Assembly: GCA_005223085.1 (NCBI GenBank)
Contig: NJBP01000006.1
Location: 1-59,586, forward strand
From: Candidatus Aerophobetes bacterium Ae_b3b
GTDB lineage: Bacteria; Aerophobota; Aerophobia; Aerophobales; AE-B3A
Direction of reading: 5' to 3'
Length of the DNA: 59,586 bases
The translations under genes and the position numbers were made by a program. Numbering within the stretch: the first letter of the stretch is position 1; each line of letters opens with the position of its first letter. The notes under the pieces were generated by a model that worked only from the letters and a program-made list of their open reading frames with translations, was not told the DNA's origin and searched no databases. Of the stretch, positions 48,395-48,730 are shown one piece after another.

Positions 48395-48730
48395 TCAATT
48401 CGAAGTCTTTTGTTTTTGATATTTCGTCTTTTTTTGAAGAAAAAGAGCTCGATTCAAATCTTCCTCAGCGATGAAATTCTCATTAAGAAGAATTTCTCCT
48501 AACAGTTTATTTTTCCCCTCTTTTTGCTGGACTTCCAGGCTCTTGCTAAGTTCTTTATTATTCATACAGCCAATCTCACACAGTATCTCTCCCAGCTTCT
48601 TTCCCATAAAGTATTCCTCCAAGATAGAAAGTATCACAGCACTTTTGCTTTTTCTCTCTTTTCTTGCCTTGTCTTTGGCTGCATTAATTAGGTGCCTATC
48701 TTCCGCAGTATAGTAGATAGTGGTCTGCAT
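48395..48730 (-). CDS. Ribbon-helix-helix-like DNA-binding domain fused to an MshEN-type c-di-GMP-binding domain
   Basis: N-term QTTIYYT (beta) - AEDRHLINAAKDKARKERK - SKSAVILSILEEYF; C-term tandem KLGEILCEIGCMNNKELSKSLEVQ and LLGEILLNENFIAEEDLNRALFLQ fitting RLGxxLxxxGxxxxxxLxxxLxxQ; GGAG RBS. Confidence 0.75.
   Translation of the reverse strand: MQTTIYYTAEDRHLINAAKDKARKERKSKSAVILSILEEYFMGKKLGEILCEIGCMNNKELSKSLEVQQKEGKNKLLGEILLNENFIAEEDLNRALFLQKKTKYQKQKTSN

Follow-up and report, generated by a model that had tools for sequence, protein, structure and literature searches.

Transcription factors that respond to c-di-GMP (cyclic dimeric guanosine monophosphate), MrkH among them, typically govern genes of adhesion, matrix or motility. 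In VpsT, VpsR and FlrA (listed in passages of PMC10519070), as in BldD and FleQ (named in passages of PMC5013675), one and the same protein senses the messenger and binds DNA. Widespread receptor domains for c-di-GMP are few, and passages of PMC12448109 name only PilZ, MshEN and, recently, ComFB. The MshEN fusions that Wang et al. 2016 (PMC5013675) name in passages of their main text involve an ATPase, a glycosyltransferase, REC, HD-GYP, CheA, CheX, a cyclase and a Ser/Thr kinase; in the passages covered, this literature places MshEN on ATPases, glycosyltransferases and signalling enzymes, and describes none on a DNA-binding domain. Here we consider a stretch of 59,586 nucleotides (the window) of Candidatus Aerophobetes bacterium Ae_b3b (assembly GCA_005223085.1, contig NJBP01000006.1), where a short gene of the reverse strand codes for a protein of 111 residues, made of a ribbon-helix-helix (RHH) fold followed by an MshEN_N-type module. 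We think it somewhat more probable than the sum of its rivals that this protein is a one-component c-di-GMP-responsive RHH regulator. Its link to c-di-GMP is well supported, by residues and fold on one side and by a neighbourhood of riboswitches on the other, and a role as a transcription factor is likely.

The closest described receptors are the MshEN_N modules of MshE/PilB-type ATPases (5HTL, 8PDK), with which the protein shares two tandem 24-residue motifs, a four-helix bundle and the same ligand-contact positions. PilF GSPII-B has K and L at the first motif positions, exactly as here, and both Geobacter PilB and PilF GSPII-C have the same 7-residue spacer and are aligned without gaps. By contrast with the ATPases, the present protein has neither MshEN_C nor an ATPase domain, its module is C-terminal to a DNA-binding fold, and the second glycine of motif II is replaced. 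On the DNA-binding side it resembles CopG, Arc, MetJ and NikR in its beta-alpha-alpha fold, its predicted intertwined dimer and its polar ribbon residues; NikR, which we take to be an RHH protein with a C-terminal ligand-sensing domain, would offer a likeness in layout too. The sensor is MshEN_N here, however, and no Pfam RHH family passes its threshold. Another small RHH protein tied to c-di-GMP is CdbA of Myxococcus xanthus (PMC7156744). Its c-di-GMP-binding regions fall among residues that DNA binding requires as well, and the passages covered describe no separate receptor module, mentioning MshEN merely as another receptor class. Ligand and DNA binding appear mutually exclusive in CdbA (passages of PMC7156744), which by analogy is one possible mode for RHH-MshEN_N. 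As a relative, CdbA found no match in a profile search of the Protein Data Bank (PDB) at E ≤ 10. Finally, none of VpsT, VpsR, FlrA, BldD and FleQ is described, in the passages cited above, with an MshEN module; RHH-MshEN_N proteins are far smaller, and most of them stand under the control of a c-di-GMP riboswitch.

A predicted minimal c-di-GMP-binding module

The C-terminal half of the protein displays two 24-residue motifs, KLGEILCEIGCMNNKELSKSLEVQ (motif I, residues 45-68) and LLGEILLNENFIAEEDLNRALFLQ (motif II, residues 76-99), with a spacer of 7 residues. A sequence-only reading had proposed them as MshEN motifs, and they are borne out by the sequence, by NCBIfam and by profile and fold matches. 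Against a cut-off of 38 bits, the NCBIfam model NF053729 ('cyclic di-GMP-binding domain, MshE-related') reaches 43.3 over residues 77-103. A search for homologues found 331 at E ≤ 1e-3, mostly of 100-115 residues, and a family alignment was made of 56 of the 120 listed, picked by eye for diversity. The corresponding profile, run against the PDB, matched Thermus thermophilus PilF (E 3.5e-18, and 3.1e-9 for residues 299-360, its best single domain), Geobacter PilB (1e-7) and Vibrio cholerae MshE (5HTL, 4.9e-6), all within query positions 43-101. In the AlphaFold2 model this half forms a four-helix bundle (helices 46-52, 58-74, 77-83 and 89-110). Foldseek superimposes it on c-di-GMP-bound MshE (5HTL) with a root-mean-square deviation (rmsd) of 1.5 Å over 56 columns, and on c-di-GMP-bound PilF GSPII-B (8PDK/8PFA) at about 1 Å over 53 columns.

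Compared with the extended motif, (R/K/L)LGxx(LVI)(LVI)xxG(LVI)(LVI)xxxxLxxxLxxQ in two tandem 24-residue copies, residues 45-68 and 76-99 fit, with deviations at position 7 (C) and position 11 (C) of motif I and at position 10 (N) of motif II; K and L as first residues are permitted by the extended consensus as given in passages of PMC11731258. The same passages describe how c-di-GMP is held: position 1 of each motif stacks, the backbone of positions 2-4 makes contacts, and two leucine triangles (position 2 of one motif with positions 17 and 21 of the other) act together with the glutamine of position 24. The residues at contact positions 1, 2, 3, 17, 21 and 24 are all present, as K45, L46, G47, L61, L65 and Q68 in motif I and L76, L77, G78, L92, L96 and Q99 in motif II. 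They equal those of PilF GSPII-B (K/L, L, G, L, L, Q), and G47, Q68, G78, L96 and Q99 are invariant in the 56 family members.

The substitutions noticed in the sequence-only reading are as it stated, K45 and L76 standing where MshE has arginine and N85 where the consensus has its second glycine. Its suggestion that affinity may be reduced as a consequence finds no support, because PilF GSPII-B, with the same K and L (K167 and L196) at its first motif positions, binds c-di-GMP with a dissociation constant (KD) of 6 nM, against 500 nM for MshEN (passages of PMC11731258). In the same source the PilF double mutant K167R-E170D has a KD of 92 nM, termed similar to that of the single mutant K167R, and K167L one of 2 nM. 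The double change Q190E+Q218E abolishes c-di-GMP binding in PilF. By analogy, a weakening of c-di-GMP affinity through the K and L substitutions is unlikely. As for position 85, relatives have E, K, D, N or Q in place of the second glycine; the residue is at a turn between helices and is absent from the ligand contacts listed in those passages.

The Pfam model PF05157 finds no match in the 111-residue protein, and the same model detects the PilB-like ATPase of the genome. Going by its sequence, then, the protein is of an MshEN_N-only kind, not a full Pfam MshEN domain. Isolated N-subdomains do bind the messenger: VcMshEN_N1-62 has been measured at 0.35 µM (in a passage of PMC5013675), and PilF159-221 binds at 54 nM.

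A ribbon-helix-helix domain likely to face DNA

The likeness of the N-terminus to the beta-alpha-alpha fold of Arc and CopG, also put forward from the sequence, is supported by the AlphaFold2 fold, by Foldseek and by the prediction of a dimer. The model of the whole protein has a predicted local distance difference test (pLDDT) of 88.4, and its N-terminal half is extended over residues 1-8 and helical over 9-24 and 29-41. Its nearest Foldseek matches are CopG bound to DNA (1B01; template modelling score 0.77 on the target, rmsd 1.8 Å over 44 columns) and Arc, and VapB and FitA are found among further matches. For neither half was there a match at E ≤ 0.001, which is expected because both domains are very small; the ranking is clean nevertheless. 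Family databases are less eloquent: the N-terminus meets Pfam VapB_antitox below threshold (17 bits where the cut-off is 27.9; E 0.01), and the 56-member profile retrieved no convincing RHH protein among its matches in the PDB.

Prediction of a homodimer, with c-di-GMP included, gave a median ipSAE (interaction prediction score from aligned errors) of 0.66, against 0.00 for the best control, with at least 98% agreement of contacts between runs and a partner pLDDT of at least 89. When this score was calibrated, 20 of 30 proteins whose solved structures are pairs of one chain attained the mark, as did one of 23 solved as single chains; resemblance to RHH dimers of solved structure may lie behind the value obtained here. 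The predicted interface is made of residues 1-41, with both helices, and its strand contacts (4-4, 5-3, 6-2) are those of an antiparallel, intertwined RHH ribbon. Module residues 49-54 and 94-98 pack on the RHH of the partner. Conservation in the 56 members is among the highest where DNA would be expected: in the ribbon Q2 is invariant, position 4 is T or S and Y6 is kept in at least 90%, while at the start of helix 2 R26 and S28 are invariant and K27 and S30 are kept in at least 90%. The outward ribbon residues Q2, T/S4 and Y6, together with the basic and serine-rich beginning of helix 2, speak for a surface that binds nucleic acid.

Annotation of the family is sparse. Some members bear the JGI (Joint Genome Institute) label 'metal-responsive CopG/Arc/MetJ family transcriptional regulator', and the family clusters found in the ESM Atlas, from Bipolaricaulota, are all unnamed 'hypothetical protein'. 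The nearest named homologue among the matches listed has 81% identity and is labelled Candidatus Aerophobetes. Within the best 150 of 7377 profile matches, in a table read by eye, all 44 full-length ones have 72-168 residues; no fused or longer form of RHH-MshEN appears there, the long proteins aligning to MshEN_N only. In the phylum of the window, a true homologue is found in nine of 31 genomes (11 of 31 have a match, two of them only through the MshEN part of large proteins).

Riboswitches on one or both sides of the gene in many loci

The second line of evidence comes from 60 loci of species-representative genomes, all scanned with Rfam and labelled by their submitters mostly as Bipolaricaulota/Acetothermia, with some Aerophobetes, Fraserbacteria and others. 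A same-strand aptamer of the c-di-GMP-I type is found at most 400 nt upstream of the gene in 42 of the 59 loci whose upstream DNA extends for at least 300 nt, and one at most 400 nt downstream in 28 of the 51 with at least 300 nt of downstream DNA; 28 loci have aptamers on both sides, and four have tandem aptamers upstream. In 36 of the 42 upstream cases the aptamer shares its 3' end with a hairpin's 5' arm; the hairpin has 8 bp or more and leads into a T-run. Such an overlap of aptamer and terminator is the architecture expected of an ON switch. This T-run-anchored criterion replaced a cruder automated count of 14 of 42, which was low because outer pairs masked the hairpin. Downstream, terminator overlap is found in only three of 29 aptamers. 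What follows the downstream aptamers is of two sorts: the large proteins scanned there (nine of nine) have adhesin-type repeats (DUF11, DUF7507, PKD, cadherin-like, Big, VWA, SpaA), and the small ones (five scanned, that of the window included) match no family.

One locus, L014 (4001-5375), carries two tandem RHH-MshEN paralogues, each behind its own c-di-GMP-I aptamer; a third aptamer comes after them, followed by a SpaA-repeat surface protein of at least 974 residues.

In the window there is a single aptamer, located 267 nt past the stop codon of the gene. It passes both the canonical model RF01051 (63.4 bits against a gathering threshold of 35) and the variant model RF03167 (61.4 against 59), and its terminator-like hairpin does not overlap it, unlike the ON-type layout judged by the T-run-anchored criterion. 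No riboswitch was detected upstream of the gene by Rfam in positions 46500-49600, even at E ≤ 10. The gene that the riboswitch probably controls, some 430 nt beyond the terminator, codes for a small secreted acidic repeat protein that no Pfam family matches; relatives L087, L088 and L090 have, in the corresponding position, a protein with the same signal peptide and different repeats.

A proposed regulator in a circuit that would read the same messenger twice

How such a protein would work can be proposed in outline. Two chains would form the RHH dimer, with the ribbon (Q2, T4, Y6) and the N-terminus of helix 2 (R26-K27-S28-K29-S30) in contact with DNA. After a linker of 3-4 residues each chain would continue as a minimal four-helix MshEN_N module, taking up one c-di-GMP through K45/L46/G47, L61/L65/Q68, L76/L77/G78 and L92/L96/Q99. 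For the ligand to enter PilF, helix 1 of the module has to unfold at its first turn. Here binding of c-di-GMP may reposition or stiffen the RHH dimer and alter its affinity for DNA, a change made plausible because helix 1 of the module adjoins helix 2 of the RHH and the module packs on the RHH of the partner. In most of the family, c-di-GMP would begin by opening the upstream ON-type riboswitch; the protein would then be made and would meet the same ligand, while the second, downstream riboswitch precedes genes for adhesin-like surface proteins. The window would be wired differently: the gene would use a promoter of its own, with no riboswitch upstream, and the downstream riboswitch, with a separate strong promoter, would serve the small secreted repeat protein. 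This variant wiring, without an upstream riboswitch and with a promoter element common to both transcripts, is what the window itself contributes.

We infer the binding of c-di-GMP and of DNA, the target promoters and the sign of regulation alike. As regards the earlier proposal of a new one-component c-di-GMP transcription factor, the RHH-MshEN architecture and, by the riboswitch context, the link to c-di-GMP stand; 'transcription factor' is still an inference, since the search for an operator established none. Novelty holds for the literature searched, full-text searches having returned no description of an RHH-MshEN fusion, with the proviso that the supplementary architecture tables of Wang et al. 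2016 may list further fusions.

Several points count against the regulator. N85 falls outside even the relaxed pattern of 2016, which allows G, A or S, and position 7 of motif I is not hydrophobic. The alpha/beta subdomain MshEN_C is absent, the protein stopping 12 residues past motif II, and neither an RHH family above threshold nor MshEN is found by Pfam in the 111 residues. At the level of loci, 14 of the 60 have no aptamer anywhere, and a same-strand aptamer at 400 nt or less is missing from all nine same-phylum loci outside the window (four have one elsewhere in the 3-kb locus).

The search for an operator points both ways. A perfect 16-bp palindrome, TTGTATTATAATACAA, covers the -10 element of the gene promoter and again that of the riboswitch promoter, within 25 identical bases that these two local promoters have in common. 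It has exactly two copies in the window at up to two mismatches, where 0.02 are expected, and in the 2.04-Mb genome only the two local sites at up to one mismatch (29 sites at up to three). The spacing of its half-sites, about 11 bp, would suit a pair of RHH dimers bound to the same face of the helix. Its 10-bp core TATTATAATA, however, occurs 12 times in the genome, mostly in ordinary strong promoters of unrelated genes (sigma-factor-like, MarR-like, LacI-like, Fur-like and others, judged by eye from translations). Among five metagenomic relatives (77-96% protein identity) both palindromes are perfect only in the closest; the other four have one to three symmetry-breaking mismatches, and one downstream site has no match. 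More distant Aerophobota loci, such as L065 and L069, have partial likeness only. Inverted repeats at 42 riboswitch promoters of the family do not exceed the length seen in shuffles (mean 5.9 against 6.0 matched pairs), by a crude scoring with mononucleotide shuffles. The palindrome is therefore kept as a weak candidate operator, and not counted as evidence, because its core is common, its arms drift in relatives and there is no family-wide excess of inverted repeats.

As a marker of a regulon the palindrome was rejected, its 10-bp core marking 12 promoter-like sites ahead of unrelated genes. Elsewhere, in locus L035, an inverted repeat of 9-11 bp (TTCTAAGTG ... CACTTAGAA) flanks the -10 element of the riboswitch promoter, upstream of 3881, and it is weaker in the related L037; from its position it is possibly an operator in that lineage.

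Other ways to account for the protein

With an operator not demonstrable and the evidence for MshEN_N strong, the explanation that survives best after a regulator is a c-di-GMP-binding protein without a role on DNA, in which the RHH would only dimerise. Such a protein might be a buffer, a sink or an adaptor passing the signal on to another protein, and might sharpen or delay the response of the downstream adhesin genes under riboswitch control. That an ON-type c-di-GMP riboswitch precedes the gene in 36 of 42 loci would suit a feedback buffer, and with the nanomolar affinities of modules of the K/L type (passages of PMC11731258) a small protein present in abundance would act as an effective sink. 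We nonetheless regard it as unlikely: the presumed DNA-facing residues are among the best conserved, which dimerisation alone would not need, and the nearest N-terminal matches of Foldseek are repressors bound to DNA.

Rather less credible is an RHH regulator with a degenerate relative of MshEN, which would bind another nucleotide, for instance a different cyclic dinucleotide, or would merely oligomerise. MshEN homologues such as XpsE have lost binding (passages of PMC5013675), and the departures from the 2016 motif at II-10 (N85), I-7 and I-11 could be read in that light. Part of the flanking aptamers, moreover, score best with RF03167, whose ligand is not stated in the passages that name this model. 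Yet all ligand-contact positions are kept, five of them without variation in the 56 members, the aptamer of the window passes the canonical c-di-GMP-I model, and the closest fold matches are structures with the ligand bound. An antitoxin of the VapB-like RHH kind, from a type II toxin-antitoxin pair, is very improbable and was rejected for want of an adjacent toxin partner, notwithstanding the weak VapB_antitox match, VapB and FitA among the Foldseek matches and a stretch of lower GC beside a serine recombinase and a tRNA: no toxin-like open reading frame (ORF) adjoins the gene in the window or is among the downstream ORFs listed for related loci, which code for secreted or surface proteins, many behind riboswitches, and its C-terminal half consists of an MshEN_N module instead of a tail that binds a toxin.

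To return to the one-component regulator, we advance more tentatively, at slightly less than even chances, a wider proposal. RHH-MshEN_N proteins would be the first transcription factors built on an MshEN module, and part, with the flanking c-di-GMP-I riboswitches, of a two-layer circuit where an RNA sensor turns on a protein sensor for the messenger that it reads itself, setting thresholds for adhesin or matrix gene expression in uncultivated Bipolaricaulota, Aerophobota and Fraserbacteria with few other c-di-GMP receptors; the window would show a derived wiring, with control at the promoter in place of the upstream riboswitch. If this is true, a protein of 100-110 residues would come close to being the smallest c-di-GMP transcription factor of modular build. 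Small size would make for easy expression and crystallisation, and for a test bed of how ligand binding by MshEN_N is transmitted as a signal. The succession of riboswitch, receptor gene, riboswitch and adhesin gene would place natural RNA and protein sensors of one messenger in series, and offers a handle on the control of surface attachment in phyla known solely from metagenomes.

The gene and its features in the window

The features of the locus are collected in Table 1. A longer frame of 133 residues is also open, from an ATG at 48796 on the reverse strand. The 111-residue start is preferred because homologues begin, as it does, at MQTT, because a GGGAG lies 6 nt 5' of its ATG, and because the promoter-like site of the gene falls within the extension of the longer frame.

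Table 1. Features of the RHH-MshEN_N locus in the window; coordinates are those of the window.
Feature	Coordinates	Strand	Basis
RHH-MshEN_N gene, 111 residues plus stop	48395..48730	-	ORF and translation; homologue search
RHH domain, residues 1-42	48605..48730	-	AlphaFold2 model, Foldseek, homodimer prediction
MshEN_N-type c-di-GMP-binding module (predicted), residues 45-99	48434..48598	-	NCBIfam NF053729, family profile, Foldseek
Shine-Dalgarno-like GGGAG, before the ATG at 48730	48737..48741	-	sequence inspection
Promoter-like TTTCCA-16-TATAAT of the RHH-MshEN gene (putative)	48764..48791	-	consensus scan, 10/12
Perfect 16-bp palindrome TTGTATTATAATACAA over the -10 of the gene promoter (weak candidate operator)	48760..48775	.	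window and genome search
Second TTGTATTATAATACAA copy, over the -10 of the riboswitch promoter	48195..48210	.	window and genome search
Promoter-like TTGACA-16-TATAAT of the riboswitch transcript (putative)	48199..48226	-	consensus scan, 12/12
c-di-GMP-I class riboswitch aptamer	48050..48127	-	Rfam covariance models
Intrinsic-terminator-like hairpin and U-run, 3' of the aptamer	48003..48037	-	minimum free energy fold of 47985-48135
Small secreted acidic repeat protein, 127 residues	47186..47569	-	ORF; signal peptide, APAEEAT x5, EDPGAI x6, DEDQ repeats

The secreted repeat protein is hypervariable, with APAEEAT/EDPGAI in the window and EDPVV or QQVEEQ in close relatives. The stretch of about 420 nt that leads to its gene from the terminator (47580-47995, reverse strand) contains several GC-rich hairpins, such as CCCCTCAGCTTGCTGAGGGG and CCCACAGCTTTGCTGTGGG, and has no Rfam match at E ≤ 10.

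The genome and the surroundings of the locus

The source assembly (2.04 Mb in 86 contigs) is 88.6% complete, and in it the c-di-GMP network is small: there are six c-di-GMP-I aptamers, one GGDEF protein and one PilB-like ATPase with a Pfam MshEN domain, and no PilZ was found. The ATPase, a PilB/GspE-like protein of 579 residues and the only Pfam-MshEN protein of the genome, starts just after a c-di-GMP-I aptamer (contig C6, 24959-25035 and 25319-25579), and a second gene for an MshEN-type receptor is therefore also placed behind a c-di-GMP riboswitch. On contig C9 two c-di-GMP-I aptamers about 125 nt apart (2704-2977) are on the same strand as the single GGDEF gene (10576-11037), some 7.6 kb away.

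In the window, within 43752-45117, a large serine recombinase of 441 residues (Resolvase, Recombinase and Zn-ribbon domains; reverse strand) ends in or beside a tRNA gene (43752-43823) that directly follows an rRNA operon, and GC content drops to 0.37-0.44 from about 45.5 to 49.5 kb. An integrated element may carry the RHH-MshEN locus. Between recombinase and c-di-GMP locus is a gene (45764-46096, reverse strand) for a protein of 110 residues, which has a MarR-like winged helix at its N-terminus and a membrane segment at its C-terminus. On the other side, a cluster of cell-wall type (49542-55569, reverse strand) codes for two PF00144 beta-lactamase-family proteins (524 and 395 residues), an Rce1-like CAAX protease and an S13 D-Ala-D-Ala carboxypeptidase.

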